Source of the DNA: a bacterium
GTDB lineage: Bacteria; Patescibacteriota; Patescibacteriia; UBA1558; UBA10009
Length of the DNA stretch: 64,000 nucleotides
Direction: 5' to 3'
NCBI GenBank assembly: GCA_018672055.1
Contig: JABHGM010000001.1
Span: forward strand, 432,679-496,678
Shown here: positions 17,736 through 40,390 of the stretch, piece by piece
Position numbering within the stretch: position 1 is the first letter of the stretch
Layout of the letters: each line of letters begins with the position of its first letter
The notes under the pieces: model-generated
What the model was told of the DNA's origin: nothing
Databases searched by the model: none
The model's input: only the letters and a program-made list of their open reading frames with translations
Translations under genes and position numbers: made by a program

Positions 17736-19085
17736 ATGTCAGTAAAAAAGAAAATTACAAAAAAAGCTAAGCCTAAGAAAAAACCTGTAAAGAAAGCTAA
17801 ACCTAAAAAGAAAGTAACTAAGAAAAAACCAGCTAAGAAAAAGGCACCTGCTAAAAAAGCTAAGCCTAAGAAAAAACCAGCTAAGAAAAAGGCACCTGCT
17901 AAAAAAGCTAAGCCTAAGAAAAAACCAGCTAAGAAAAAGGCACCTGCTAAAAAAGCTGTTCGTAAACCTAGAGCTAAAAAGGAAAAGCCTTACGTAATTA
18001 CAATCCCTACAGAAGAAGAGATAGATAATTTAGTTCAAAAAGGTAGATTAAGAAGCTTTATTACAGAAGAAGAGGTTCTTTTTACTTTTGCTGATGTTGA
18101 AGAATATATTGAGATATTTGAAGATTTTTTAGAAGAAGTAGATCATAATGGAGTCGAAGTGGTAACTCAGGATACAGGATATTTAGGAGATTTTAGTTTA
18201 GAGGAAGATGCAGAAAAAGATAGAATTGCTGATGAACTTAAGAAAATAGATATTGCTGAGATTTCATCTGATTCAATTCAAATGTATTTGAAAGAGATTG
18301 GTAAAGTACCACTACTTAAGAGTGATCAAGAAGTATCTCTTGCCAAGCGTAATGAAAAAGGTGAAGTAGAAGCTCGTAGATTATTAATTGTATCTAATTT
18401 AAGATTAGTAGTTTCCATTGCTAAGAAATTTACTGGACGTTCATTATCTTTACTTGATCTAATTCAAGAAGGTAATATTGGATTATTTAGAGCTGTTGAG
18501 AAATTTGATTATAGGAAGGGCTATAAGTTTTCTACTTATGCTACTTGGTGGATTAGACAAGCTATAACTAGAGCTTTAGCTGATCAATCTAGAACTATTA
18601 GGGTACCAGTTCATATGGTAGAAACTATTAATAGATTTAAACAAGTTGAAAGAAGATTAATTCAAGATTTAGGCAGAGAACCATTACCTGAAGAAATAGC
18701 TGCAGAAATGAATGAAGAGCTTGACAAAGTTAGAAATATCATTAAAATATCACAAGAAACAGTATCTTTGGAAACTTCAGTAGGTGAAGATAGTGAAGAC
18801 TCTACTTTAGGTGATTTTATTGAAGATGATAAGACAATTACTCCAGATAGAGTAGCTGCACTTAGACTTCTTAAAGATCATGTAAAAGATATTATTTCAG
18901 AGCTAACGCCAAGAGAACAAAAGATACTTGAAATGAGATTTGGCTTGTCAGATGGTGTTGCCCATACTTTAGAAGAAGTAGGACAAGAATTTGGAGTAAC
19001 GCGTGAACGTATTAGACAAATAGAAGCTAAATCTTTAGAAAAAATGGCAGATCATAGCGATATGAAGAAATTAAAAGATTATTAA
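17736..19085 (+). CDS. rpoD: Primary sigma factor (RpoD-like) with a lysine/alanine/proline-rich repeat N-terminus
   Basis: Regions 1.2-4 are conserved ([53 protein letters not shown]). The N-terminal ~85 aa are [16 protein letters not shown] repeats. Confidence 0.9.
17811..17954 (+). repeat. Coding tandem repeat: two perfect 48-bp units (17859-17906, 17907-17954) plus a partial upstream copy
   Basis: gctaagcctaagaaaaaaccagctaagaaaaaggcacctgctaaaaaa is repeated exactly. Confidence 0.85.
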
Positions 19086-21777: not shown

Positions 21778-22134
21778 ATGTCCACAAAGAAAAAAATACT
21801 TATCGGAGAAGATGAAAGGCCAATGGCAAAAGCTTTAGAGCTTAAATTAAATAGCGTTGGTTTTGAAGCTAAGGCTGTTTTTAATGGAAATGAAGTAATT
21901 GAGGAATTAACTACTAATAAGTATGATTTGTTGTTACTTGATTTAATTATGCCTAAGCTAGGAGGTTTAGAAGTTATTAGAGAAGCTGGTAAAGAACAAA
22001 ATATTATTGTTGTTTCTGCTGTAGGACAGGATAAAGTAGTTAAAGAGGCTAAAGATTTAGGCGCTAAAGGCTATATAGTAAAACCCTTTGACAATAAACA
22101 AGTGATTGAGGAAATAAATAAAGTTTTAGGTTAA
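21778..22134 (+). CDS. cheY: Chemotaxis response regulator CheY
   Basis: Single receiver domain (DD...D57-like LLLDLIMP...K) as the first gene of the che operon. Confidence 0.8.
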   Translation: MSTKKKILIGEDERPMAKALELKLNSVGFEAKAVFNGNEVIEELTTNKYDLLLLDLIMPKLGGLEVIREAGKEQNIIVVSAVGQDKVVKEAKDLGAKGYIVKPFDNKQVIEEINKVLG

Positions 22135-22155
22135 TATTTAAGTGAATATTAATTC

Positions 22156-23199
22156 ATGGTTAAGAAGAAAAAAATAAAAGTTCTTATTGTTGATGATTCT
22201 TTTTTTATGAAAAAGCTCTTACGAGAGCTTCTTTCGTCAGATTCTAGTATTGAAGTAGTAGGTGAAGCTAAAACTGGTTCAGAAGCAATAGGTGAAACAT
22301 TAAGGTTAAAACCTGATGTTATTACTATGGACTATAATATGCCTGGTATGACAGGCGCTGAAGCTATTAGAACGATTATTAATAATGATAAGCTAGAAAG
22401 ACCAGCCATTATAATGCTTTCTGCTTACGCTAAAGAAGGCGCTGATGAAACTATTGAATGTTTAAGAGCTGGTGCTGTAGATTTTATTGCTAAACCTTCT
22501 GGAGAGTTATCACTTGATATTGAAAAAATAAGAGAGGATATATTAAAAAAAATACATACCGCTAAACTTGCTAGAATTCGTAGATTTCCAGGCACTAAAA
22601 AGAGAAGTGGTAAAGTGTCATTTAAAAATATAAAAGGAAGTAAGATTATAGTAATTGGTGCTTCAACTGGAGGTCCGCCTGTAGTTGAAGATATATTACT
22701 TGCCTTACCAAAGAATATTCCGGCTACAATATTTGTAGCTCAACATATGCCAGATTTTTTTATAAGTCGTTTTGCAGAAAGACTTGATAAATTAATGGAT
22801 TTAAAAGTTAAAGTGTTATCAGATAATTCACTTATTGCTCCTAAACAAGTAATTATAGTAAATGATAATTTTAAAATAATTGGTGATAAGATTAAAAGAA
22901 TAAAAATTTGTAAAGTAGATGAAGAATGTGGTGCTAGACCATCTATTGATAGTACAATGATTTCATTATCAAAAGCTTATGGTAAAAAAGTAATAGGTAT
23001 TATGCTATCAGGTATGGGTGAAGATGGATTTGAAGGTTTTAAAGAGATTAGAAGAAATAAAGGATTTACTATAGCTCAGGATTTAAAAACTGCAGTAATA
23101 ACTTCTATGCCTGAAACAGTAATAGAAGCAGGTTTAACGGATTCTGTACTATCACCTAATAAAATAGCTAAAAAGATTATTGAATTATGTAGTGAATAA
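22156..23199 (+). CDS. cheB: Chemotaxis protein-glutamate methylesterase CheB (REC plus methylesterase)
   Basis: N-terminal receiver and C-terminal CheB_methylest (IVIGASTGGPP, catalytic triad region). Confidence 0.85.
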   Translation: MVKKKKIKVLIVDDSFFMKKLLRELLSSDSSIEVVGEAKTGSEAIGETLRLKPDVITMDYNMPGMTGAEAIRTIINNDKLERPAIIMLSAYAKEGADETIECLRAGAVDFIAKPSGELSLDIEKIREDILKKIHTAKLARIRRFPGTKKRSGKVSFKNIKGSKIIVIGASTGGPPVVEDILLALPKNIPATIFVAQHMPDFFISRFAERLDKLMDLKVKVLSDNSLIAPKQVIIVNDNFKIIGDKIKRIKICKVDEECGARPSIDSTMISLSKAYGKKVIGIMLSGMGEDGFEGFKEIRRNKGFTIAQDLKTAVITSMPETVIEAGLTDSVLSPNKIAKKIIELCSE

Positions 23200-23201
23200 A
23201 T

Positions 23202-24974
23202 ATGATTGATCTATCAAAATTTAAAGATATATACGTTAGTGAAACTGAAGACCATTTACAAAAATTAAATGATAATCTTTTAGCATTAGAGAAAGACTTG
23301 TCAAATAAATCATTACTTAATGAATTAATGAGATCAGCTCATACTTTAAAGAGCTCATCAGCTACAATGGGATTTAATGATATGGCATTTCTAACTCATG
23401 TATTAGAAGATGTATTTGATTATGCTAGGAATGATCTATTTAATATTACTTCAGAAACAGTTACTAAATTATTTGAAGCTATAGATAGTTTAGATAATTC
23501 ATTAAAAAGTGTTAAAGAGAAAAATAAGGAATCAGATTTAAAAAAAGTAATTGAGAATATTAAAAAGATTACTGGCGTTAAAACAGAAGGTATTGGAAAA
23601 TCTGTTAGACATGAAGATGGTAAACCACTTGTTGAAAAAAAAGAAGTAAAAAGTGGTGATAATAAGTTAGATGAATTAAAAGAAGCAGATAAAATAACAT
23701 CTATTAAAGTACCGGTTGAGAGATTAGATAAATTAATGGATTTAACTGAAGAGTTATTAATAGATAGAATGAGAATTGAAACCATATCAGGGTATGATTT
23801 AGATAGTAGTTTAACAGATGAAAAGTTAACTTTAGAAAGCCTATTATTTAAGTTAACACCTGCTGTTGAGCATTTAAGTGGCTTAATCTCTAATTTACAA
23901 TATTTAGTCATGCAAGCACGTTTAGTGCCTCTTGGGCAAATATTTGCTCGTTTTCCACGCATGATTAGAGATTTAGCTACTGAAAAGAAGAAAAAAATTA
24001 ATTTAGAAATAAGTGGTGAAGATTTAGAAGTTGATAGAACCATAGTTGATAAATTAGGTGAACCTATTGTACATTTACTTAGAAATGCTTTAGATCATGG
24101 TATTGATACTGAAGGTACTATTAAATTAAAAGCAATACGTGAAAAAGATTTTGTATCAGTTATTGTTGAAGATAATGGCTTAGGAATTGATTTTAAAGAA
24201 GTCGTAGAAGCAGCTGTAAGAAAGAATATAATTGGTAATGATGAAGGAAATAATTATTTAAGTAAGATAGAAAAGAATAAGATATTTGATTACGGTGCTG
24301 ACAAGAAATATGTTGCTGATAGAAAACAAATTGAAGATATATTATTTAATCCAAGACTTAGTACTAATAAGCAAGTTACTAAAACTTCAGGAAGAGGAGT
24401 GGGCTTAAGTGTTGTTAAAAAGTTTAGTGAAGAAATAAATGGTAACATCATATTAGAATCACCATTATCTAAAAAAGGTGGTACTAGATTTACTTTAGAG
24501 TTACCACTTACACTAGCAATAATAAATGCATTACTTGTTAAAATAGATAATTCTATGTTTGCTATACCGTTTTCTAGTATTGCCAGAGCAGTTTCAGTAA
24601 AACCTGAAGATATTAAGAGTATGGCAGATCAAGATGTGGCTGTTGTTGATAATATGAGAGTGCCACTTGTAGATTTAGAAAGAGTATTTCATTTAGTAAA
24701 GCCATTACAAGGTAAAAAAACTATACAACAGCTTGAAAAAGAGAGTAAGCAAATTAATAAGACGGTTGTTTTAGTAAAACGTGGTAAAGAATTAGCTGGT
24801 ATAATAGTAGATAGGTTATTAAATGAGCAAGAAATTATTGTTAAACCATTACCTTCTGTTTTAAAAGGTGTAAAAGGATTTTCTGGCTCTACTATACTTG
24901 GTGATGGTGAAACTATACTTATTCTAGATGTTATTACTTTATTACAAGATTCAAGTAAATTAATTAGAGTTTAA
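23202..24974 (+). CDS. cheA: Chemotaxis histidine kinase CheA
   Basis: P1 HPt (RSAHTLKSS), dimerisation domain, HATPase (NALDHG, GRGVGL) and a C-terminal CheW-like P5 domain. Confidence 0.9.
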   Translation: MIDLSKFKDIYVSETEDHLQKLNDNLLALEKDLSNKSLLNELMRSAHTLKSSSATMGFNDMAFLTHVLEDVFDYARNDLFNITSETVTKLFEAIDSLDNSLKSVKEKNKESDLKKVIENIKKITGVKTEGIGKSVRHEDGKPLVEKKEVKSGDNKLDELKEADKITSIKVPVERLDKLMDLTEELLIDRMRIETISGYDLDSSLTDEKLTLESLLFKLTPAVEHLSGLISNLQYLVMQARLVPLGQIFARFPRMIRDLATEKKKKINLEISGEDLEVDRTIVDKLGEPIVHLLRNALDHGIDTEGTIKLKAIREKDFVSVIVEDNGLGIDFKEVVEAAVRKNIIGNDEGNNYLSKIEKNKIFDYGADKKYVADRKQIEDILFNPRLSTNKQVTKTSGRGVGLSVVKKFSEEINGNIILESPLSKKGGTRFTLELPLTLAIINALLVKIDNSMFAIPFSSIARAVSVKPEDIKSMADQDVAVVDNMRVPLVDLERVFHLVKPLQGKKTIQQLEKESKQINKTVVLVKRGKELAGIIVDRLLNEQEIIVKPLPSVLKGVKGFSGSTILGDGETILILDVITLLQDSSKLIRV

Positions 24975-24984
24975 AATATATTTT

Positions 24985-25599
24985 ATGGCTAAAAAAATAA
25001 CAAGTTTTGAAATTGATCAATTGAAGGAGATTACAAATATAGGGGCAGGTAATGCAAGTACTGCTTTATCACATATGCTTGGTAAAAAAGTACAAATGAC
25101 TGTACCAGAATCATATGTAGGTAAGATAGAAGAAGTTCAGAGAAATTTTGGAGAAGCTTCTGATAAAGTATTAGCTTTATTTCTTAAGATGCACGGAGAT
25201 TTAGAAGGAGCTATGGCTATGATATTTAAGCCAGAAGATGCCTTATCCTTTATGGAAATACTTACTAAGAAGAAAAAGAAAAGCCTTGATGAAATGGATG
25301 AATTAGATGAGTCATCCATTTTAGAAGTAGGTAATATATTACTTGGAGCTTCTATTACTGCTCTAGCTAAATTTTTAGATTTAAATATTACTCATACAAT
25401 TCCTGATATGACAGTTAATATGCTTGGTGCTATTATGGATACTGTTTTATTAGAAATAGGTAGTGATAGTGAAGAAATATTAGCATTTAAAGTTAACTTA
25501 CACTTTTCTGACGATAACATTGGTGGAGATATTTATTATATCTTTGATCCTGCAGCCAGTGGTATTATTTTAAAAGCTACTAAGGAGAAAGTTAAATAA
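24985..25599 (+). CDS. cheC: CheY-P phosphatase CheC
   Basis: Two CheC repeats (EITNIGAGNASTALSHMLG and EVGNILLGASITALAKFLD). Confidence 0.75.
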   Translation: MAKKITSFEIDQLKEITNIGAGNASTALSHMLGKKVQMTVPESYVGKIEEVQRNFGEASDKVLALFLKMHGDLEGAMAMIFKPEDALSFMEILTKKKKKSLDEMDELDESSILEVGNILLGASITALAKFLDLNITHTIPDMTVNMLGAIMDTVLLEIGSDSEEILAFKVNLHFSDDNIGGDIYYIFDPAASGIILKATKEKVK

Positions 25600-26076
25600 A
25601 TGAGTGAAGAAATACATATTAAAACTGCAGAGCTTGTAGTAAGTCATAATGATAATATATTAAAGTCAGGAAGTATTGGCTCTTGTATTGTTATTACATT
25701 ATATGATACTAAAAAAAGAATAGGTGGTATGGCTCATGCTATGCTTCCACATAGAAAAAATAAAATGAAAAACTATGAGGTAAAACCTACTGAAGCAAAG
25801 TATGTTGATGAAGCTGTTGATAATTTAATGAAGGGAATTAAGGATATGGGTGGTGATATTACTGCTTTGGAAGCAAAAATAATAGGTGGGGCTACTATGT
25901 TTAAGAAATTATCAGGTGATAAATTTGGTATAGGTTATAGAAATATAGAGAAGGCTAAAAAAGTCTTACAAAGCCATAAAATAAAGATAGAAAAAGAAGA
26001 TACTGGCGGTAGTAATGGTAAAATGGTAGAATTTAATTTAGCTAATGGAGTAATCCATATATCTACTAATATATAA
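25600..26076 (+). CDS. cheD: Chemoreceptor glutamine deamidase CheD
   Basis: CheD family (GSIGSCIVITLYD...GGMAHAMLP). Confidence 0.8.
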   Translation: MSEEIHIKTAELVVSHNDNILKSGSIGSCIVITLYDTKKRIGGMAHAMLPHRKNKMKNYEVKPTEAKYVDEAVDNLMKGIKDMGGDITALEAKIIGGATMFKKLSGDKFGIGYRNIEKAKKVLQSHKIKIEKEDTGGSNGKMVEFNLANGVIHISTNI

Positions 26077-26080
26077 AAAT

Positions 26081-26455
26081 ATGACTAAAAAAAAGATTTT
26101 AATCGTAGATGATGAAGCACCATTGTCAAAAGTATTAAAAGATAAATTCGAATCAACTGGTTTTGAAGTATTAACAGCTAAAAATGGAGAAGAGGGTTTA
26201 ATGAAAGCTGTTACTCAAAAACCAGACTTAATCTTGCTTGATATAGTTATGCCTAGATTAGATGGTATGACTATGCTTAAAAAGTTAAGAGAAGATGAGT
26301 GGGGCAAGGGTGTAGAGGTTATACTCTTAACAAATTTGAGTGATAATGATAAGGTAAGGCAAGCTTTAAAGAATAATGTATATGATTATTTAATTAAATC
26401 TAATTGGAAACTTGAAGATTTAGTAATAAAAGTAAAAGAAAAATTAGAAGTTTAA
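26081..26455 (+). CDS. Orphan single-domain response regulator, receiver 1 of 3, DEWG subtype
   Basis: REC domain with LLDIVMP and C-terminal KLREDEWG...YLIKSNWKLEDLV; paralogous to receiver 3. Confidence 0.8.
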   Translation: MTKKKILIVDDEAPLSKVLKDKFESTGFEVLTAKNGEEGLMKAVTQKPDLILLDIVMPRLDGMTMLKKLREDEWGKGVEVILLTNLSDNDKVRQALKNNVYDYLIKSNWKLEDLVIKVKEKLEV

Positions 26456-26459
26456 ACAT

Positions 26460-26846
26460 ATGAATGATAATAAAACAGTATTAATATTAATAGTTGAAGA
26501 TGAAAAGCCATTAAGAGAAGCTCTTAAAACTAAATTAAGAAGTGAAGGTTTTGATGTTATGGAAGCAGCTAATGGAGAAGAAGGCTTAGAGATTATAAAT
26601 AGCAAGAAACCAGATTTAGTATTACTTGATTTAATGATGCCTGGTATCCCAGGAGAACAAGTATTAAAAGAAATGAATGATTCAGGTTTAATTAAAGAAA
26701 TACCTGTTATTGTGTTATCTGTTAAGGGTAATGATACTACGATAAGGAATTGCATTGATCAATTAGGAGCTGTTGATTATATGAGTAAGTCAGATTATTC
26801 ATTAAAGGAAATAGTTGAAAAAATTAACAAATTATTAAAAATATAA
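26460..26846 (+). CDS. Orphan single-domain response regulator, receiver 2 of 3
   Basis: REC domain (LLDLMMPGIPG), diverged from receivers 1 and 3. Confidence 0.8.
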   Translation: MNDNKTVLILIVEDEKPLREALKTKLRSEGFDVMEAANGEEGLEIINSKKPDLVLLDLMMPGIPGEQVLKEMNDSGLIKEIPVIVLSVKGNDTTIRNCIDQLGAVDYMSKSDYSLKEIVEKINKLLKI

Positions 26847-26848
26847 TT

Positions 26849-27214
26849 ATGAAAAAAGTTTTAGTTGTGGAGGATGAAAGAACATTAAGAGATGCTTTAG
26901 TTAAAAAGTTATCTAAAGAAGAATTTACAGTACTTTCTGCAAAAGATGGTAAAGAAGGATTAGATACTGCTCTAGCTGAACATCCTGATTTAATCTTACT
27001 TGATATTTTAATGCCTAAAATGAATGGCATTGAAGTGTTACAAAAGTTAAGAGAAGATGAATGGGGAGCTAAAGCAAAAGTAATTGTTTTAACTGTTTTA
27101 AATGATCAAAAGAAAATTTTAGAAGCTTTAGAAAAAGGAGCTTATGAATACCTTGTAAAGAGTGATTGGAAATTAGAAGACATTGTTGAAAGAGTCAAAG
27201 AAAAATTACAGTAG
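26849..27214 (+). CDS. Orphan single-domain response regulator, receiver 3 of 3, DEWG subtype
   Basis: REC domain with KLREDEWG...YLVKSDWKLEDIV. Confidence 0.8.
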   Translation: MKKVLVVEDERTLRDALVKKLSKEEFTVLSAKDGKEGLDTALAEHPDLILLDILMPKMNGIEVLQKLREDEWGAKAKVIVLTVLNDQKKILEALEKGAYEYLVKSDWKLEDIVERVKEKLQ

Positions 27215-31488: not shown

Positions 31489-32049
31489 ATGAGTTATCAT
31501 AATAAAACAAAGACCTCAAAACAAAAAATATTAACTACCTCACCTAAACGTGGTATCTCTTACTATCTATACATTTTTTCTAAGAGATTATTAAAACCTA
31601 TTAATATATTAAAGATCAAAGATAAATTAAAATCTTTGATTTTATTGTTGTTTAATAAAGTATTTCCTCCTGTACCTAAGAGATTATTAAAGTTAGAGAA
31701 GGTAAATAAAGTAAAGAAAAGTACCTCAAAAGAAATAGTCTTACCTCTTTACTTTGGCTGGGAATTAGTAATTAGAAGAATAGAGAATTGGCAACAACAT
31801 ATAATAGGTCCTTTTAAGAAGTATTGGCAGTATATGAGTGTTGTTATGGTATTTATTGTAATAATTGGTACATTTTTCTTAGTTAGAGATTCTGAACCAA
31901 TTAAAGCGGGTACTTACAGTTTTACTCAAACTGGCTGGACAGCCTCATCTACTAACACAGGGGCTCATACAACAGATCAATCTGGTTGGACTGATTATTG
32001 GAGTGAGTATAATGTAGCTACTTCATCAGGAATAACTATATCTAGATAA
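31489..32049 (+). CDS. Hypothetical membrane protein, first gene of the operon
   Basis: Basic N-terminus, one TM segment (VVMVFIVIIGTFFLV) and a Thr/Ser/Trp-rich C-terminus. Its stop overlaps the next ATG (TAATG). Confidence 0.45.
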   Translation: MSYHNKTKTSKQKILTTSPKRGISYYLYIFSKRLLKPINILKIKDKLKSLILLLFNKVFPPVPKRLLKLEKVNKVKKSTSKEIVLPLYFGWELVIRRIENWQQHIIGPFKKYWQYMSVVMVFIVIIGTFFLVRDSEPIKAGTYSFTQTGWTASSTNTGAHTTDQSGWTDYWSEYNVATSSGITISR

Positions 32050-35000
32050 TGAAATATTTAAAAAACAATTCAAAATTATTACTTTCTATATTATTTATAG
32101 TCGGTTTTACTTTTTTTAATATTCAAAGCATAAAAGCAGCTACAATTACCTGGGATGGTAGTGAATCAGTTACTTGGGCAACAGATGATAATTGGGTGGG
32201 TGGTACAGCTCCTGTATCAGGAGATGATGTTGTTATTAATGGAAGTTACGCTAGTGCTCCAACCCTAGATTTAACAGGTGGTTCTGCTACTTTTAACTCA
32301 GTAACTGTTGGTTCTTCTGCTGATTCTATACTTACTATATCTAACTCAACAACTACTAAGAAATTAATAACTACTGCTAATTTTACAATTGGTGCTAATG
32401 GTACTACTACTCATACAGCTAATGGTGGTGTTCAAACTCATAGTTTAGTAATTGATGTTGGTGGTGATGCTCTTATTACTGGATATATGGATGTTAATGG
32501 TAAAGGGCATAGTAGTGGTCAAGGGCCTGGAACTGGAGGAACTCAGGGTCAGTATTCAACGGACGGTGGTGCAAGTTATGGTGGCTTGGGTACAGCCGGG
32601 TATAGTGCTGTTGTAGCAGGATCAGTTTATGGTAGCTTGTCATCACCAGCTGAATTAGGTTCAGGTGGTGGAGGAAGTGGTAGTGGTTCAGGTGGTGGTG
32701 CTATAAAACTTAGTGTCACAGGAACATTGACAGTTAATGGATGGATCTTGTCTAGAGGCGGTGATGCAAGTCTTGCTACGGGTGATGCTGGGGGTTCAGG
32801 TGGTAGTATTTGGCTTGTCGCAGGAACTATTACCGGCTCTGGAACTATAGCTGCTAATGGTGGTGATGGTGGTATGGAAGGATATAATAGCAGAGATGGT
32901 GGAAGTGGTGGTGGTGGTCGTATTGCAATTTATTACACTACTAATACTCATAGTGGTACGGTTTCTGTTTATGGATCTTCTATGAATGCTGCACATATAT
33001 CAACCTCAGGTACGGTTTATGATAAAGATACAGATGATTCATATGGAAGTTTAACAATAAATAATAATGGTAATAATTCCATTTTAAGTACTCCATTAAT
33101 TGATGGAACATATAACTTTAAAGGATTTACAGCGTCAGGTTTAGCTGAAGTATTATTATCTGCTAGTGATATTATAAATACTGAGACAATAACTTTGTCA
33201 GCTTCTTCTACATTACTTAATACAGATGCAGCAATTACTGTAACTTCATCGTTTACTATATCTAATGGAGCTCAATATGAGCAAAGTGAAACCGCTTCTT
33301 TAACTGCAACAGCGGCTAGTTTTACAGCAGCGGCTGGTGCAGGACCTACTTTTTGGGATATTCATAAGGATGGGTCTACACCAACGTTTACTAGTGCAAC
33401 TATTGCATCTGGAGCGACTCTTACTCATTCGGCGCAGGCCACAGCACATACATATTCTTTGAAACTTGCTGTTTCTGGTAATATGACAGTTACAGGTGAT
33501 ATAAATGTTAATGATAGAGGGTATAGATATGGTCAAGGTCCTGGAACTGGAGGAACTAAGGGTCAGTATTCAACGGACGGGGGCGCAAGTTATGGCGGAT
33601 TGGGTACACTCGGGTATGGTATTGCAGCAGGAGTAGTTTATGGCTATCAATATGCGCCAATTGATATTGGTTCAGGTGGCGGTGGTAGTACTGGTAGTGG
33701 TTCAGGTGGCGGCGCTATTAAACTTATAGCTGGTGGAATATTTACAGTTAATGGATCTATTCTCTCTAGCGGTGGTGATGCAGGTTCAAGCACTGGTGAT
33801 GCCGGAGGTTCAGGTGGTAGTATTTGGATTGAGGGTGAAACTATTACCGGCTCTGGAACTATAGCTGCTAATGGCGGTGATGGTGGTGTAGAGGGATATT
33901 CTAGTAGAGATGGCGGTGGTGGCGGTGGTGGTCGTATGATTATCTATCATACATTAACTGAAAGTTTAGATGGAACGATTACAGTAACTGGTGGTAATGG
34001 GAATAATAATGGTATGGCTTCTGATGGCACTCTTAATAGATATGCTACTTACGGAGAACTTGTTTCTTCACCATATAACACAGAAGATTCAGCTGTTATC
34101 CTTGAAGGTATAGTTTGGATAGAAGATGCAACACTTCCTGCAACAACTACAGTAACTTTATATTTAAGAACAGGTTCAAATCAGGCTAATTTGCTTGCTG
34201 CTTCTTGGTCAGAGATAGCCTCATCTACTTCTAGTGGTCTTTTAACAACAGGTGCTACTAAGGATACAGGTACTGTAACTGTAGCTTCTACTACTCTTCC
34301 GGCTGCCATGAAAGATGGATCTGATGATCAATGGATACAATACAAGGTAGCCATAACTTCAACTACAGCTTCAACTCCTACAATTACTAGTATTCAAGTC
34401 TCATATATTTCTAATTCAGCTCCATCTGTTCAAGGAGTAACTGCTTCTCAAGACTCAGATGGTAATATTGATATAGTCTATGCAGTTCTAGACTCAGATA
34501 CTGATGAAGGTTCAGTTCAATCAGGGTATATAACTCCATCTTTTGAATATTCTTTAGATAATGGTTCAACGTGGACTACAATAACAACAGGTTTAAATTC
34601 AACAGCTACCAATAATGTAGTGGTAACTCAAGGTAGTTACGCGACGTACACGGCGACGTGGTTGCCGAGACAGCAGATAGACGGAAACTATGCAGCGCAA
34701 GGTATGATTAGAGCTATTGCTTCTGATGGAGAAGCTGCTAATGCTATTGGTTCATCAACATCTATTGCCTTTGCTTTAGATGCTAAGTCTCCTGCTGCCG
34801 GATCTCCAGCAATTGTAATTGTTGCAACTACTACTCCTGCAAGTTTAACAATATCTGCAACAGATGATACTTCAATGACTATGAAGATATCTCTAGATAG
34901 TGATTTTTCTAGCGGATCATTTGTATCATATAACTCAACTTCAACCGTATCTTTAGTTGATGATCCAGATACTGTATATATTCAATTTAAAGATGCTAAT

Positions 35001-35345
35001 TCAAATAGTACAACAGCTAGTATTTTAACTCCTAATACTCCAGCTAATGTTATGATTCAAGACACAACTAATGTAACAGCTGACCCTGATGAAAGTAGGT
35101 TGTTTATCGCTTGGTCTGTTGTTGATGATCCAGCTATTGGTTTTTCTAGATATGAAGTATATAGATCAACAGATCAATCAACATATACTTTAGTTGGTTC
35201 TAGTACAACCCGTACTCTAAACTATTATGGAGATAATTCAGTAGCAGCTTCTACTACTTACTATTACAAAGTAGCTACTCTAGATACTAATGGTAATACC
35301 TCATATATGTCATCTGCTGTATATGGTTTGGCTAATGGTATTTAA
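32049..35345 (+). CDS. Giant secreted Gly/Thr/Ser-rich repeat protein, N-terminal part (1,098 codons) ending at an in-frame TAA
   Basis: Signal peptide, a duplicated ~150-aa glycine-rich module (GQGPGTGG..GQYSTDGGASYGGLGT...GGGAIKL...GGSGGSIW...IAANGGDGG) and a terminal Fn3-like domain. Confidence 0.6.
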   Translation: MKYLKNNSKLLLSILFIVGFTFFNIQSIKAATITWDGSESVTWATDDNWVGGTAPVSGDDVVINGSYASAPTLDLTGGSATFNSVTVGSSADSILTISNSTTTKKLITTANFTIGANGTTTHTANGGVQTHSLVIDVGGDALITGYMDVNGKGHSSGQGPGTGGTQGQYSTDGGASYGGLGTAGYSAVVAGSVYGSLSSPAELGSGGGGSGSGSGGGAIKLSVTGTLTVNGWILSRGGDASLATGDAGGSGGSIWLVAGTITGSGTIAANGGDGGMEGYNSRDGGSGGGGRIAIYYTTNTHSGTVSVYGSSMNAAHISTSGTVYDKDTDDSYGSLTINNNGNNSILSTPLIDGTYNFKGFTASGLAEVLLSASDIINTETITLSASSTLLNTDAAITVTSSFTISNGAQYEQSETASLTATAASFTAAAGAGPTFWDIHKDGSTPTFTSATIASGATLTHSAQATAHTYSLKLAVSGNMTVTGDINVNDRGYRYGQGPGTGGTKGQYSTDGGASYGGLGTLGYGIAAGVVYGYQYAPIDIGSGGGGSTGSGSGGGAIKLIAGGIFTVNGSILSSGGDAGSSTGDAGGSGGSIWIEGETITGSGTIAANGGDGGVEGYSSRDGGGGGGGRMIIYHTLTESLDGTITVTGGNGNNNGMASDGTLNRYATYGELVSSPYNTEDSAVILEGIVWIEDATLPATTTVTLYLRTGSNQANLLAASWSEIASSTSSGLLTTGATKDTGTVTVASTTLPAAMKDGSDDQWIQYKVAITSTTASTPTITSIQVSYISNSAPSVQGVTASQDSDGNIDIVYAVLDSDTDEGSVQSGYITPSFEYSLDNGSTWTTITTGLNSTATNNVVVTQGSYATYTATWLPRQQIDGNYAAQGMIRAIASDGEAANAIGSSTSIAFALDAKSPAAGSPAIVIVATTTPASLTISATDDTSMTMKISLDSDFSSGSFVSYNSTSTVSLVDDPDTVYIQFKDANSNSTTASILTPNTPANVMIQDTTNVTADPDESRLFIAWSVVDDPAIGFSRYEVYRSTDQSTYTLVGSSTTRTLNYYGDNSVAASTTYYYKVATLDTNGNTSYMSSAVYGLANGI
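32480..33960 (+). repeat. Intragenic duplication: ~460-bp glycine-rich module present twice (about 32480-32950 and 33500-33960)
   Basis: By eye the two copies are roughly 85% identical at DNA level, for example ggtcagtattcaacggacggtggtgcaagttatgg versus ggtcagtattcaacggacgggggcgcaagttatgg. Confidence 0.7.
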
Positions 35346-37856
35346 GATTCAGGTGAAGGTGGAGGCGGATCTGATGTAACAGCTCCAACTATTTCAAACA
35401 TTGCAACATCAACAGTATCAACAGCACAAGCTACTATTACATGGGATACTAATGAATTGTCTAACTCAACAATTGGTTATTCAACAGCTACTAGTACCTT
35501 TACTACAGAAACAGGTGTTGCTACATATTTAAATAACTCTTCTGGTGTTGGTCAACACAGCGTTACCCTGACTGGTTTGTCAGCTAATACAAGATACTAC
35601 TTTAAAGTAATATCAACAGACGTATCATCTAATACAGCTTCTTCTACAAATAGCATAGTAGGCTATACTTTTGTTACACAATCAGGTCCAATTATTTCTT
35701 CTGTTTCTGCTTCATCTATTTTAAATACACAAGCAACTGTTACCTGGAACAGCGATACATCGTCTGATTCTACGGTATATTATTCAACTAATTCAGATTT
35801 ATCCAGTCCATCATCTGTAACTAGCGCTTCATCTGTTACGGCTCATTCCATAGCTTTAACAGGTTTAACATCTGGAACTAGATATTATTTTTACGTAACA
35901 TCAGGTGTTGGTACTGATAATAGCTCAGGGAGCTATTACAGCTTTGTTACAACGTCAGATTCTACTGGACCTGTTATTTCATCAATATCTGAGAGTTTAA
36001 CTACAGACGATGATGTCATAGTAGCCTGGACTACTGACGAAGGAGCAACCTCACAAGTACGATATGGTATTACTTCTGGTGTTTATCCAACAACAACTAC
36101 TGTAACTACTGATTACAATACAGCACATAGTGTTAATATTTCTAGCCTATCTAATGATACTACTTACTACTATACTGTTATGTCTGTTGATGCTTCTGGC
36201 AATGGTTCTACTTCTACAGAAGAATCATTTGCCACACTTGAATTACTATATCAACAAACAGCAGTTACTACCCTAGAGGATGCTGCTCAGGCTCTTGGAC
36301 AATCTCAGGGTAATACAGTTTATGTTTATTCAGGTGGCGGCGGTGGTAGTACTATTATTGTTAACAAAGAAGATTCAACTGCACCTACTATTTCTAATGT
36401 TATTGTTGATATTGGATCTCAAGATATGGAGATTACATTTACTGTTGATGAAGATGCAATTTCATTTGTTCAGTTTGGCTTAGATAATAATTATTCTCGT
36501 ACTATTGGTAATCCAACTTTTAGTCAGTCACATGATTTAAAACTTGATTATTTAAGTCCTAAAACTGAATATCATTATCAAACTATCATAATTGATGATT
36601 TTGGTAATATTACTTCGACTACAGATAGTATCTTCACAACCCTAGCTTTAGGTGAAGATAATGTAGTAGATTTACCAGATGAAGATGAAGATCAGGATTC
36701 AGATACAAATATTGAAATAACAGATGAAGGAGATGATTCTTTTGTTGAAACAATTAAAAAAGCAGCAAATAATATTAAAGAATATTTTAATAATAAATTC
36801 TCAGAAGTATCAATCAGTGCTTTTGAAGAAGGTTTAATAGAACAATATGATTCTTTGAAAGAACTAGCAGAGTTTGTACCACCCCCAATAATTAGTGGTG
36901 AGCCAGTTATTGTAACCGGTTCTACTGATATTACTATTTCTTGGGAAACAGATAAGGATTCTAATTCTTTAATTGCTTTTGCACCAGAAGATTATTTCTT
37001 TAATCAAAATGAATACTTCCAAACAGTAGGTGATCCAGAAGAGTATGTTACAGATCATATAGTAACAGCAGCAGGCTTAGAACCAGATACTATATATCAT
37101 TATCAAGTAAGAAGTAAACAAGAAATAGGTACTCAGGCTCAATCAAAAGATTTTATTTTTAGAACTAGACCACAATCTGCAGAGATTGAGAATTATACTA
37201 CAGAATTAATATCTTCTTCTGAAGCTAGATTTAGATGGGTAACCTCAGTAGAAACTGATTCAGAAGTATCATATACCCCATATATTGATGGAGTACTAGC
37301 CATAGATCAAGAAAGAACTGCAAGTGATGATAGTTTTACTACTATTCATGAAATTAGTATTGAAGCATTTGAATCAGGTATTGATTATCAAATAGAGTTA
37401 TCAGGTGAAGATTTAGGCGGTAATAGGATAAGTAGAGTAATATCTAGATTCTCAACTTCAGATGATGATCTAGCTCCTGAGATTCAACAAGTTAAAACTG
37501 ATGCAGCGTTGTCACTTGGTAAAGAGACTAAAGTACAAGCTATTATTTCATGGACTACTAATGAACTTTCAACCTCACGTGTATACTATCAACAAGGAGT
37601 AGTTAAATCAGGTGACGAGCTAACAGAAGCGACACCTATTGAAAAGAATCTAACCAGACAACATGTTATGGTAATTACTGACTTTAAACTAGGTGCTATC
37701 TACAGATTCCAAGTTGAGAGTACTGATTCTGGTGGTAATACAATTAGATCTAGAACATATACTTTATTAACACCAAGAAAGTCTAAATCAGTCTTCCAGG
37801 TTATTATGAGAAACATAGAAGGTACCTTTGGTTGGCTAGGTTTATTTGAAGAATAA
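35346..37856 (+). CDS. Same-frame continuation of the giant protein (836 codons): seven Fn3-like domains and an acidic linker
   Basis: An Fn3 domain starts immediately after the TAA (DSGEGGGGSDVTAPTISNIATSTVSTAQATITWDT...). There is no in-frame ATG or GTG until a TTG at 35457, and no signal peptide. Confidence 0.55.
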   Translation, partial: DSGEGGGGSDVTAPTISNIATSTVSTAQATITWDTNELSNSTIGYSTATSTFTTETGVATYLNNSSGVGQHSVTLTGLSANTRYYFKVISTDVSSNTASSTNSIVGYTFVTQSGPIISSVSASSILNTQATVTWNSDTSSDSTVYYSTNSDLSSPSSVTSASSVTAHSIALTGLTSGTRYYFYVTSGVGTDNSSGSYYSFVTTSDSTGPVISSISESLTTDDDVIVAWTTDEGATSQVRYGITSGVYPTTTTVTTDYNTAHSVNISSLSNDTTYYYTVMSVDASGNGSTSTEESFATLELLYQQTAVTTLEDAAQALGQSQGNTVYVYSGGGGGSTIIVNKEDSTAPTISNVIVDIGSQDMEITFTVDEDAISFVQFGLDNNYSRTIGNPTFSQSHDLKLDYLSPKTEYHYQTIIIDDFGNITSTTDSIFTTLALGEDNVVDLPDEDEDQDSDTNIEITDEGDDSFVETIKKAANNIKEYFNNKFSEVSISAFEEGLIEQYDSLKELAEFVPPPIISGEPVIVTGSTDITISWETDKDSNSLIAFAPEDYFFNQNEYFQTVGDPEEYVTDHIVTAAGLEPDTIYHYQVRSKQEIGTQAQSKDFIFRTRPQSAEIENYTTELISSSEARFRWVTSVETDSEVSYTPYIDGVLAIDQERTASDDSFTTIHEISIEAFESGIDYQIELSGEDLGGNRISRVISRFSTSDDDLAPEIQQVKTDAALSLGKETKVQAIISWTTNELSTSRVYYQQGVVKSGDELTEATPIEKNLTRQHVMVITDFKLGAIYRFQVESTDSGGNTIRSRTYTLLTPRKSKSVFQVIMRNIEGTFGWLGLFEE

Positions 37857-37857
37857 T

Positions 37858-39186
37858 ATGAAACCAATAATAGAAACAAAAAAATTAAATGTAACTTATT
37901 TTAAGGGTCAAGAGAATGAAATTAGGGCTCTTAAAAATATTGATATACAAATATATCCAGGTGAATTTGTAATATTTTATGGTCCTTCAGGTTGCGGTAA
38001 ATCTACAATTCTTTATTCTATTGCTGGTTTAGAAAGGCATATGGAAGGTGAGATTACAATTAATGGTGTTAATTATATGGATTTTAGTGAAAAAGATTTT
38101 GAAAAATTACATCAAGAAGAAATGGGTATGATATTTCAAGCCTATTATTTAATACCTTCAATGTCTGTGATTGATAATGTACTTTTACCTCAAGTTGCTA
38201 TGGATATGGAAAAGAAAAAAAGACAAAAACGTGGTTCAGAAGTTTTAAAGTATTTTAATATCGAAGCACAAGCAAATAAAATGCCTCAAGAACTATCAGG
38301 TGGTCAGCAACAAAGGGTAGCCATTAGTAGAGCTATTATTAATGACCCGAATATAATTTTAGCTGACGAACCTGTTGGTAATTTAGATTCTAAATCAGCT
38401 TCTGATGTAATGGAATTATTTAAACAATTAAATATTCATCAGAAAAAAACAATCATCATGGTAACTCATGACCCATCTCGTTTAGATATAGCAGATAGGG
38501 TTTTTTATATTAAAGATGGTTATTTAACAGATACTAAGGTTAATAAAGCTAAATATTATAGACCTACAATTACTGATGAAATATCTAAAGATTTTAAACA
38601 ATTATCTAAAACTCATAAGGCTATAACTTCTATTGAAAATGATTTAGATTTAGAAGACTATAAGTCAAAGAATTTAGCTTTAGAAGTATTAACAGGTTTG
38701 TCATATGGCGAATTTGAAGTAATTCAAAATCATGTTGATAAGTTGCTTAATATGGAAGGTGCTGTTAATTACAATGAAATGTATAATTTTTTTGATAAGA
38801 ATAGCAGAGAGGGCGGTCTTGATATGGATGTTAGAAAAGCTAAGAAATTAATGTTTCAACTTAAAGACATGGTTGAAGTTATAAAACAACTTAAAAATGG
38901 CAAACTTGATATTAACGAAGAAGTAAGTTTAATTAGAAAGTATATTTTTGGTGTGTTTAATATTAATATTGAAGATGAAAAAGTTTTAAAAATAGTTAAT
39001 AAAGTAATATTTGAAAGATTACAAAATAAGATTGATATGATAGCAGTTCAAGTAATTTTTGATTTACCCTTTTCAGAAGGTGGTGTTGGTTTAGATATTC
39101 GTGTAGCTCACAAAGTTTCTAAAAGACTTGAATTATTAATTTTAGGAAAATATAAGATAGTTAAACCATCATTTAATAAGATTTAA
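37858..39186 (+). CDS. ABC transporter ATP-binding protein (MacB/LolD/FtsE-like) with a ~215-aa C-terminal extension of unknown type
   Basis: Walker A GPSGCGKST, signature LSGGQQQRVAISRA, Walker B ILADEP. The ATG lies 1 nt after the previous stop; the ORF-track TTG start at 37846 was rejected. Confidence 0.8.
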   Translation: MKPIIETKKLNVTYFKGQENEIRALKNIDIQIYPGEFVIFYGPSGCGKSTILYSIAGLERHMEGEITINGVNYMDFSEKDFEKLHQEEMGMIFQAYYLIPSMSVIDNVLLPQVAMDMEKKKRQKRGSEVLKYFNIEAQANKMPQELSGGQQQRVAISRAIINDPNIILADEPVGNLDSKSASDVMELFKQLNIHQKKTIIMVTHDPSRLDIADRVFYIKDGYLTDTKVNKAKYYRPTITDEISKDFKQLSKTHKAITSIENDLDLEDYKSKNLALEVLTGLSYGEFEVIQNHVDKLLNMEGAVNYNEMYNFFDKNSREGGLDMDVRKAKKLMFQLKDMVEVIKQLKNGKLDINEEVSLIRKYIFGVFNINIEDEKVLKIVNKVIFERLQNKIDMIAVQVIFDLPFSEGGVGLDIRVAHKVSKRLELLILGKYKIVKPSFNKI

Positions 39187-39187
39187 A

Positions 39188-40390
39188 ATGAAAATAGCTG
39201 ATATTATATATTTATCTGTAAGATCGTTTAAAACAAAGCGTTTAAGAACTGCTTTGACTATTTTAGGTGTTGGTGTTGGTATTAGCGCTGTCTTATTCTT
39301 AGTATCGCTTGGATATGGTTTGCAGAATCTCATTTTAACTCAAATTACTTCAGAAGATTCTTTATTAAGTTTAGATGTTAGTGCAGGTAGTTCTGGTTTA
39401 ATTAGTTTAGATCAAACAAGTTTAGATAAATTTGCTTCAGTTGAAAATGTTAATGAGGTAAGTGCAATGTCTAATCTATCTGGACAGCTTACTTTAGATG
39501 AAATAACAGGTGATGCTGTTGTTTATGTTATTGATGAGTCATTTCTACGCTTAAGTGGCGTTAAACCTCAATACGGAGAAAGTTTTTCTGATTCTAATGA
39601 ACCTGAAATAATAATATCATCAATTGGTGCTCAGTTATTTGATTTTGAAGATCCGGGTGATATTATTGGTAAAGAAATAGAAATAACCTTATTTATTTCA
39701 ACAATTACTGAAGAAGAAGTTGAAGAAGTTGAAGTTATCACTTTAGAACAAAAATTTAAAGTAACTGGTGTAATTAGTGATGAAAATTCAAATTATTTTT
39801 TCTTACCTAAAACATTAATAGGGGATGTAGTTATTGAAGAATTTGATCAAATTAAAGTTAAAGTTTCAGATGGTGACTATTTAGAAGAAGTTAGAAATGA
39901 AATAATTGAAGCTGGTTTTTTGGTTACTTCATTAACTGATACTATTGATCAAGCTAAAAAAATATTTAAAATAATTCAAATTATTTTAGGTTTATTTGGT
40001 TTAGTAGCTTTAGCTGTATCTGCTATTGGAATGTTTAATACTATGACTATTACTTTACTGGAGAGAACTAATGAAATTGGTATTATGAGAGCTATTGGTG
40101 TAACTAAGAAAGATATTATTATGTTATTTTTATTTGAATCGATGGTGATTGGGTTTTTAGGTGGGCTTTCTGGTATTATTTTAGGTATATTGTCAGGTGA
40201 AATATTTAATTTAGTACTAAATGTATTTGCTAAGAATTTAGGTTCTCAAGCTTTAGATCTATTTTACTATCCATTCTGGTTCATATTATTCATTATTATC
40301 TTCTCAACTATTATTGGTTTCTTAACAGGTATTTATCCTTCAAAAAGAGCTGGTAATTTAAATCCTTTAGATGCTCTCCGATATAAATAG
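39188..40390 (+). CDS. ABC transporter permease, MacB/FtsX family
   Basis: N-terminal TM, a ~230-aa extracytoplasmic domain and three C-terminal TM segments (FtsX fold). There is a 1-nt gap after the ATPase stop. Confidence 0.8.
   Translation: MKIADIIYLSVRSFKTKRLRTALTILGVGVGISAVLFLVSLGYGLQNLILTQITSEDSLLSLDVSAGSSGLISLDQTSLDKFASVENVNEVSAMSNLSGQLTLDEITGDAVVYVIDESFLRLSGVKPQYGESFSDSNEPEIIISSIGAQLFDFEDPGDIIGKEIEITLFISTITEEEVEEVEVITLEQKFKVTGVISDENSNYFFLPKTLIGDVVIEEFDQIKVKVSDGDYLEEVRNEIIEAGFLVTSLTDTIDQAKKIFKIIQIILGLFGLVALAVSAIGMFNTMTITLLERTNEIGIMRAIGVTKKDIIMLFLFESMVIGFLGGLSGIILGILSGEIFNLVLNVFAKNLGSQALDLFYYPFWFILFIIIFSTIIGFLTGIYPSKRAGNLNPLDALRYK

Follow-up and report, generated by a model that had tools for sequence, protein, structure and literature searches.

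A probable young nonsense allele in a giant Fn3-bearing surface-protein gene of a near-clonal Patescibacterium

The locus and its in-frame stop codon

The stretch of DNA analysed here (hereafter the window) comprises 64,000 nucleotides of a Patescibacterium genome with a GC content of 30%, and around its middle lie two long open reading frames (ORFs) which read like a single giant surface-protein gene interrupted by one TAA codon. ORF1 (32049..35345) begins with ATG and encodes 1,098 amino acids, while ORF2 (35457..37856) is listed with a TTG start and 799 amino acids; their starts are offset by 3408 nt, or 3 x 1136, and the two thus share a common frame. A preliminary description of the window, made from the sequence alone, had proposed that both belong to one gene of ~1,935 codons in which the TAA at 35343-35345 is the only stop between the two halves, and had offered three accounts of that stop: a sequencing or assembly error, a recent nonsense mutation, possibly phase-variable, or programmed readthrough. 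Translation of 32049-37856 in one frame bears out the arrangement, giving 1,098 codons, a single stop, 836 further codons and a terminal stop. The features around the junction are the following.

32049..35342, + strand: N-terminal 1,098 codons of the giant gene, the part still translated (ORF and homologue alignment)
35334..35369, + strand: inter-domain linker N-G-I-[stop]-D-S-G-E-G-G-G-G, which in relatives is N-G-x-Q-D-x-G-E-G-G-G-G (alignments, 16 of 17 loci)
35343..35345, + strand: premature TAA, which replaced an ancestral CAA (Gln) through a single C>T transition (Q codons of the relatives)
35346..37856, + strand: cut-off C-terminal 836 codons and native stop (Pfam domains, collinearity with homologues)
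35457..35459, + strand: TTG start assigned to ORF2, the first ATG, GTG or TTG after the stop and most likely spurious

The TAA stands in the context GGT ATT TAA GAT TCA GGT GAA GGT GGA GGC GGA, and the protein sequence around it reads GLANGI before the stop and DSGEGGGGSDVTAPTISNIATSTVSTAQATITWDTNELSNSTIGYSTATS after it. An open run of 836 codons downstream of a stop cannot be due to chance at this GC content, its probability being near 1e-30 by a rough estimate from base composition (~8% stops per random codon). As the preliminary description had remarked, TAA is the normal terminator of other genes in the window: open frames of at least 150 amino acids end in TAA in 40 cases, in TAG in 6 and in TGA in 2 (n=48). 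Single-stop junctions between open frames of at least 90 codons occur seven times in the window; the other six are ordinary adjacent genes (an ATG close behind the stop was verified for four of them), and the junction at 35343 is the only one that has no start codon behind its stop.

Recurrence of the stop codon across assemblies

The stop codon recurs in every assembly examined. An exact match to the 1,098-aa product is recorded in 94 assembly-collection blocks, with contigs of up to 0.2-1 Mb, and one to the 799-aa product in 88 blocks, plus 34 more where it goes by another protein id, P0130, with coding DNA that matches the window exactly; each of the two products is found on >50 contigs, the longest measuring 0.96 Mb. 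Both NCBI and JGI annotate two separate proteins at the locus, for example as the protein pairs MBT4495878.1/MBT4495879.1, MBT4763938.1/...39.1 and MBT5401309.1/...10.1 in metagenome-assembled genomes (MAGs) at NCBI. At the level of DNA, six fetched loci match the 5,808-nt gene region with 100.000% identity (L001-L004, L006 and L007; source accessions ENA ERZ27250245, ENA ERZ4201022, JGI 3300024260 and JGI 3300025456). In L005 (NCBI GCA_018662785.1) the gene region differs only by in-frame deletions of 3 nt and 9 nt far from the stop, which fall in poly-Gly tracts of ORF1 (window 32905-32907 and 33911-33919; L005 8001-11285) and are the sole differences in 19 kb. Not one substitution relative to the window is present across 10-23 kb of L001-L007 (window 22049-45856), and the amino-acid variants on record are singletons only, located in both halves; either clonality in the population is extreme or sampling was confined to one site.

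Sequencing or assembly error, the first of the three accounts, is rejected because identical DNA and identical ORF products recur in many assemblies, with the TAA-bearing DNA coming from at least five sample or assembly accessions and the products from about 90 blocks each. The stop is real, and such an error is excluded for practical purposes. Long, repeat-rich genes are error-prone in MAGs, and in a single MAG a frameshift divides one homologue, L014, but the assemblies compared here span different pipelines and samples (ENA k141 and NODE contigs, JGI, NCBI MAGs) and the stop site lies outside any repeat or homopolymer. We therefore regard it as extremely unlikely that the TAA is an artefact, or that the consensus hides a population in which most cells carry an intact gene. 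An intact allele was not found in the databases either: a 1,934-aa fused query returned nothing above 39% identity except ORF1 itself, and no exact match among ~15 billion proteins was obtained when Q, K, E, L, S or Y was placed at the stop of the fused protein. DNA-pattern scans of a metagenome contig collection, with any codon allowed at the stop or with the downstream flank alone, gave no match, this collection evidently not containing the organism. A 348-aa query across the junction retrieved only proteins of 349-600 aa, a length range that is uninformative about intact alleles.

Homologues and the ancestral codon

When the two ORFs are joined and used as one query, they retrieve many single-chain homologues of 1,700-3,300 aa, the named ones mostly from Patescibacteria (Moranbacteria, Pacebacteria and Dojkabacteria, with Parcubacteria, Magasanikbacteria, Falkowbacteria and Saccharibacteria among the further names). 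The junction is spanned by 29 BLAST high-scoring segment pairs from 20 different single-chain homologues. Two of these (P0017 and P0018) align nearly end to end with the fused product, and four others (P0004, P0015, P0007 and P0010) are collinear with it up to the last residues of ORF2; the closest, P0004, is a single ORF of 2,117 aa with 39% identity. All of the ~10 single-chain proteins that were aligned (1,700-3,270 aa) read through the stop position, and in 17/17 loci from GTDB species genomes the frame continues past the junction without a stop.

What these relatives carry in place of the stop is nearly always glutamine. The linker N/D-G/A-x-Q-D/N/S-x-G-E-G-G-G-G was found in 16 of the 17 loci, with Q at the stop position in 16/16, a count to be read with the fact that the locus-search patterns, built from four aligned sequences, favour Q or L at that position. 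Three loci (L011, L022 and L023) do not fit the linker pattern and were presumably found via another pattern; they also have Q. Of the 16 Gln codons, 12 are CAA and 4 are CAG. Among the closest protein homologues the residue is Q or L, as can be seen from the alignment of the window (ANGI-*-DSGEGGGGSDVTAPTISNI) with P0010 (ANGV-L-DGGEGGGGTDIIAPTITNV), P0005 (ADGV-Q-DAGEGGGGAGTIVPTISNV) and P0002 (ANGV-Q-DAGEGGGGS-LTAPQLFNV). Locus L010 reads NGIQDSGEGGGG, with flanks that are the same as those of the window, and at the nucleotide level the window has AATGGTATTTAAGATTCAGGT at the site where L018 has AATGGAATTCAAGATGCTGGC and L010 has AACGGCATTCAAGATTCTGGC.

Since relatives have CAA at this position, the TAA is a single C>T transition away from the ancestral codon, and the alignments show that the stop position was originally a Gln codon within one undivided gene. 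The proposal of a single ~1,935-codon gene is thereby upheld, as homologues align through the stop and show a one-gene layout with matching downstream genes. The comparison of orthologues that the preliminary description had suggested has thus been carried out, and the relatives have a single gene with a sense codon at the site; a two-gene arrangement was found neither at the P0004 locus nor among the 17 loci.

The downstream frame and its putative start

The codons that follow the TAA open an Fn3 domain, as had been claimed from the translation, and in the protein sequence behind the stop Pfam fn3 covers residues 14-98. No ATG, GTG or TTG occurs in the 37 codons after the TAA, in line with the earlier remark that an in-frame ATG or GTG is missing before the TTG at 35457. 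That TTG is codon 38 of the post-stop frame and falls inside the Fn3 domain, past its conserved ITWDT Trp; because of this position, a start there would give a broken first domain. The N-terminus of ORF2, LSNSTIGYSTATSTF, is not hydrophobic by inspection, which indicates that it has no signal peptide. The description of ORF2 as a frame that begins mid-domain and lacks an export signal is therefore accurate. ORF2 has no independent start, and the TTG at 35457 is, to judge from the sequence, most likely an artefact of gene calling.

ATG is the start of 54 of the 59 listed window ORFs, and a Shine-Dalgarno-like motif precedes only 7/59, the leaders being A/T-rich; the organism seems to initiate largely without Shine-Dalgarno pairing, and with the motif so rare, its absence at the TTG is uninformative. 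A scan for promoters and terminators found no sigma-70-like site or terminator near the junction, with counts at or below shuffle expectation. One Shine-Dalgarno-like GGAGG (35361-35365), located 8 nt before an out-of-frame ATG-TAA (35374-35379), was considered and rejected, as its purine run corresponds to conserved Gly codons and such motifs are rare in this genome.

A nonsense allele as the preferred explanation

Taken together, a real stop, relatives with one gene and Gln at the site, and the lack of recoding signals described below favour the second of the three accounts, a recent nonsense mutation. We consider it highly probable that the TAA is a young, apparently fixed nonsense allele (CAA Gln to TAA) which truncates a single ancestral giant surface-protein gene. 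A point mutation from CAA to TAA would have struck the conserved inter-domain linker of a gene for a giant secreted or surface protein. Translation would then end at codon 1099 and yield a signal-peptide-bearing product of 1,098 aa made of whole domains, which should fold well because the stop falls in a linker between domains. The part lost would be the C-terminal 836 residues, an array of Fn3/purple-acid-phosphatase-N-type domains with a conserved C-terminal motif, and the protein would thereby be deprived of a portion for anchoring or for distal binding. The downstream part is probably untranslated, and the 2.5 kb that encode it would represent a young, undecayed relic from which gene callers make an 'Fn3 domain protein' starting at the first TTG. 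The mutation event appears to be recent, and the allele, the only one seen in this nearly SNP-free population, probably rose with its clone through drift, hitch-hiking or an advantage of losing or shortening an adhesin.

Some points weigh against this explanation. The downstream 836 codons show no relaxed constraint, with neither a second stop nor a frameshift, which would also fit continued expression. Moreover, assemblies represent only a consensus, such that a minority CAA allele in the reads is possible, and many among the ~90 blocks may derive from repeated assembly of one site or time series, so that 'fixed' holds for the sampled population only.

Regarding the first of these points, family-conserved residues (positions at which at least 4 of 5 homologues agree) are kept at 137/162 (85%) downstream of the stop versus 87/113 (77%) upstream of it. 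Of the single substitutions possible in the downstream segment, 4.8% give rise to a stop, and neutral evolution would therefore produce a second one only after a divergence of ~0.6% (50% chance) to 2.5% (95%). With 0 single-nucleotide polymorphisms (SNPs) per 10-23 kb between assemblies, a decay test or a within-population ratio of nonsynonymous to synonymous substitution rates (dN/dS) has no power, and with divergence below the range at which a neutral second stop is expected, the intact downstream frame need not be an argument for expression. An intact frame with undiminished conservation is plausibly just what a young relic looks like.

Alternative explanations

In one group of rivals the downstream frame is still translated from the upstream start. 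Programmed readthrough and bypassing are established in systems such as the Q-beta A1 protein and T4 gene 60, which resemble the present locus in having an in-frame stop followed by an open, meaningful frame; they differ from it in that here the stop is not conserved, no stimulatory structure is present, and both stop codon and context are efficient. Functional readthrough, whether programmed or leaky, would supply some full 1,935-aa protein beside the 1,098-aa form, and could draw on the intact downstream frame, as conserved as the upstream part, and on the location of the stop exactly between two domains, within a flexible Gly-rich linker, where both products would be well formed. Against it, a stop is conserved at the site in none of the 17 loci or ~10 aligned proteins, and TAA is the main terminator in the window. 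The stop context is UAA-G, which is among the efficient termination contexts in E. coli. The 141 nt around and after the stop, moreover, fold no better than shuffled sequence (minimum free energy -18.6 vs a shuffle mean of -24.5 kcal/mol, z = +1.69; 196/200 shuffles fold at least as well), and the three tRNAs in the window (Lys-ttt, Ser-gga and Asn-gtt) include no suppressor. A young mutation alone also predicts an intact downstream frame. We judge readthrough to be quite improbable, and programmed readthrough, the third account in the preliminary description, finds no footing. Bypassing of the T4 gene 60 type would require the ribosome to leave the message at ATT 35340-35342 and to resume at ATT 35391-35393, 48 nt downstream, and it is true that these matched codons flank a 48-nt gap which begins with the stop and is similar in length to the 50 nt skipped in gene 60. 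ATT is, however, very common at 30% GC and a match is expected by chance, the supposed gap encodes the conserved linker DSGEGGGGSDVTAPT of all relatives, a take-off stem-loop is missing, and the stop is found in no relative, which leaves this scenario with a negligible probability. Other forms of recoding were also dismissed: frameshifting is ruled out with ORF1 and ORF2 in one frame, and a genetic code with TAA reassigned is incompatible with TAA ending 40/48 long ORFs and with this being the sole startless single-stop junction in the window. Phase variation, which had been mentioned as a variant of the nonsense mutation, is not borne out, given that the site lacks a repeat tract and that the databases yielded no intact allele.

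A different view would take the locus at its annotation, as two genuine genes with ORF2 encoding a functional Fn3 protein from TTG 35457 or from a non-canonical start. Two proteins are indeed what the databases record, the scarcity of Shine-Dalgarno motifs makes a missing one indecisive, and one may speculate that the C-terminal motif beside an ABC exporter leaves room for export independent of a signal peptide, with ORF2 leaving the cell via that motif and the adjacent ABC/MacB system. We nevertheless find this view very unlikely: no relative examined has a two-gene layout, the 37 codons before the TTG encode conserved Fn3 strands A and B with the invariant Trp, the window's ORFs begin overwhelmingly with ATG, and ORF2 has neither a promoter-like site nor, by inspection, a signal peptide. 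A further variant accepts the nonsense mutation yet sees the truncation as a selected or still functional state, either through low-level UAA readthrough or because the clone benefits from a shortened protein that lacks the LLTP...FGW motif. This seems improbable to us; if true, the benefit of the shortened protein could lie, for example, in phage escape or in changed host attachment.

Comparison with known systems and implications

The closest parallel to the nonsense allele proposed here comes from Listeria monocytogenes, in which premature stop codon (PMSC) alleles of inlA lead to a truncated, released internalin A and are fixed in clonal lineages. As in those alleles, a long surface protein with a signal peptide has lost its C-terminal part to one nonsense substitution, the whole clone carries the allele, and the downstream sequence is still recognisable. 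Unlike in Listeria, the organism is an uncultivated Patescibacterium, and neither an intact sister allele nor a phenotype is known here. The event itself is an ordinary truncating mutation and reveals no new mechanism.

Its implications are first of all practical, in that the two products recorded for the locus each represent half of a single gene disrupted by a nonsense mutation, and the TTG from which the 799-aa model begins is spurious. Beyond annotation, this is a case of a widely sampled, near-clonal marine Patescibacterium with a truncated protein that probably served adhesion to a host or a surface. Large Fn3-bearing surface proteins of Patescibacteriota have been proposed as host-adhesion candidates encoded by fast-evolving genes (PMC13059738; PMC11809585). 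The protein studied here resembles them in its great length, its signal peptide, its Fn3-type domains and its origin in a small-genome Patescibacterium; it differs from those proteins, which have FhaB-type, integrin or concanavalin domains, in its ATITWDG start, Gly-rich modules, QDxGEGGGG linker, LLTP...FGW motif and ABC/MacB synteny, and in being truncated. The truncation fits the fast turnover of adhesion genes in episymbionts, and the loss is unsurprising. A possibly more useful by-product of the analysis is the giant-protein family itself, with its conserved linker, C-terminal motif and ABC/MacB neighbour.

Architecture of the giant protein and its neighbouring genes

The remaining features of the gene and of the region immediately downstream are listed below.

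32049..32138, + strand: predicted Sec signal peptide MKYLKNNSKLLLSILFIVGFTFFNIQSIKA; the mature protein then begins with ATITWDG, which is conserved in the family (inspection)
37764..37835, + strand: family C-terminal motif LLTPRKSKSVFQVIMRNIEGTFGW, at the extreme C-terminus in 13/13 homologues inspected
37858..39186, + strand: ABC-transporter ATPase of 442 aa, with a MacB/LolD/FtsE-like nucleotide-binding domain and a C-terminal extension (Pfam ABC_tran 3e-32)
39188..40390, + strand: MacB_PCD/FtsX-type permease of 400 aa, the partner of the ATPase (Pfam MacB_PCD 9e-22, FtsX 4e-21)

ORF1 contains the signal peptide, two Gly-rich beta-strand repeat modules that stem from an internal duplication, and Ig/Fn3-like domains; it has no Pfam, NCBIfam or PDB sequence match, and PDB sequence searches with either half gave no match. 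The duplicated Gly-rich module spans ~450 nt in each copy (window 32476-32923 vs 33490-33937, 81% nucleotide identity). The alignment of P0017 and P0018 with ORF1 begins at residue ~12-30, and their N-termini, like that of P0005, have a matching layout, with ...A followed by ATITWDG, AAISWDG or ATITWNG. The part behind the stop consists of an array of Fn3/Pur_ac_phosph_N-type domains (Pfam Pur_ac_phosph_N at 7e-42 in 5 stretches, fn3 at 1e-16), an acidic linker and the family C-terminal motif. This motif has the consensus LLTP[RKQ]..S[VI].[QD][VIL]I..N....FGW, is intact in the downstream frame of the window, and was found by tblastn at the gene end in related loci. It may serve to anchor or sort the protein or to interact with the MacB-type system next to it, and it may be the link between the giant proteins and that system.

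The inter-domain linker N-G-x-Q-D-x-G-E-G-G-G-G, Gln included, is unusually conserved over distant lineages (GC 34-56%). Such conservation exceeds what a passive spacer would need, and the linker may thus be a processing or cross-linking site.

The ATPase at 37858..39186 also shows LolD, DevA and MacB-type matches in NCBIfam, below cut-offs. An ATPase and permease pair adjoins the giant gene in 9/17 loci, and at the P0004 locus the giant ORF precedes genes for an ABC ATPase of 449 aa and a MacB_PCD/FtsX permease of 398 aa, in the same order as in the window. ABC/MacB adjacency is listed for the window, for the P0004 locus and for L008, L014, L015, L016, L019, L021, L022 and L024, amounting to ~10 loci across Patescibacteria, and the neighbouring ABC ATPases measure ~442-449 aa, including a C-terminal extension of ~200 aa. 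The giant protein and the ABC/MacB pair may form a dedicated system for sorting, anchoring or mechanotransmission. Four features characterise the family, namely the signal peptide with ATITWDG, the QDxGEGGGG linker, the LLTP...FGW motif and the ABC/MacB neighbours; the window shows all of them once ORF1 and ORF2 are joined, and the same layout is seen at the P0004 locus and in L008, L014, L016, L019 and L021. The family of giant Fn3 proteins with ABC/MacB neighbours was delimited in this analysis and is not a curated one, and a description of it and of its ABC/MacB neighbours was not found in the literature.

One member of the family is itself split. L014 (7199-13494 of CAZLNR010000018.1, labelled Gammaproteobacteria) consists of two overlapping ORFs with a frameshift inside an Fn3 domain (11410-11482), which could be either an assembly error or a second, independent disruption within the family.

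Other features of the window

The named best matches of the RpoD encoded in the window come from the Patescibacteria group (Komeilibacteria, Parcubacteria, 'Patescibacteria group bacterium') or are an unassigned 'bacterium', and RpoD relatives at 77% identity are on record (P0135-P0137). The N-terminus of this RpoD (17736-19085) is a Lys/Pro/Ala-rich tandem repeat, and P0134, a cluster representative, equals it except for the deletion of a 32-aa repeat copy, which points to variation in repeat number within an otherwise SNP-free population.

A chemotaxis-type cluster at 21778-27214 encodes CheY-like, CheB, CheA, CheC and CheD proteins, followed by three further single-domain response regulators. 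Clusters of this type are unusual for Patescibacteria; the genome is ~1 Mb in size, and MCP, CheW and CheR were not seen in the window. De novo purine biosynthesis is commonly reported to be missing in Patescibacteria. Purine genes at 41313-63628 encode IMPDH, GMP synthase, FolD, PurA, PurL (in large and split forms), PurQ-like, PurC, PurB, PurF, PurD and PurH, a near-complete de novo set.

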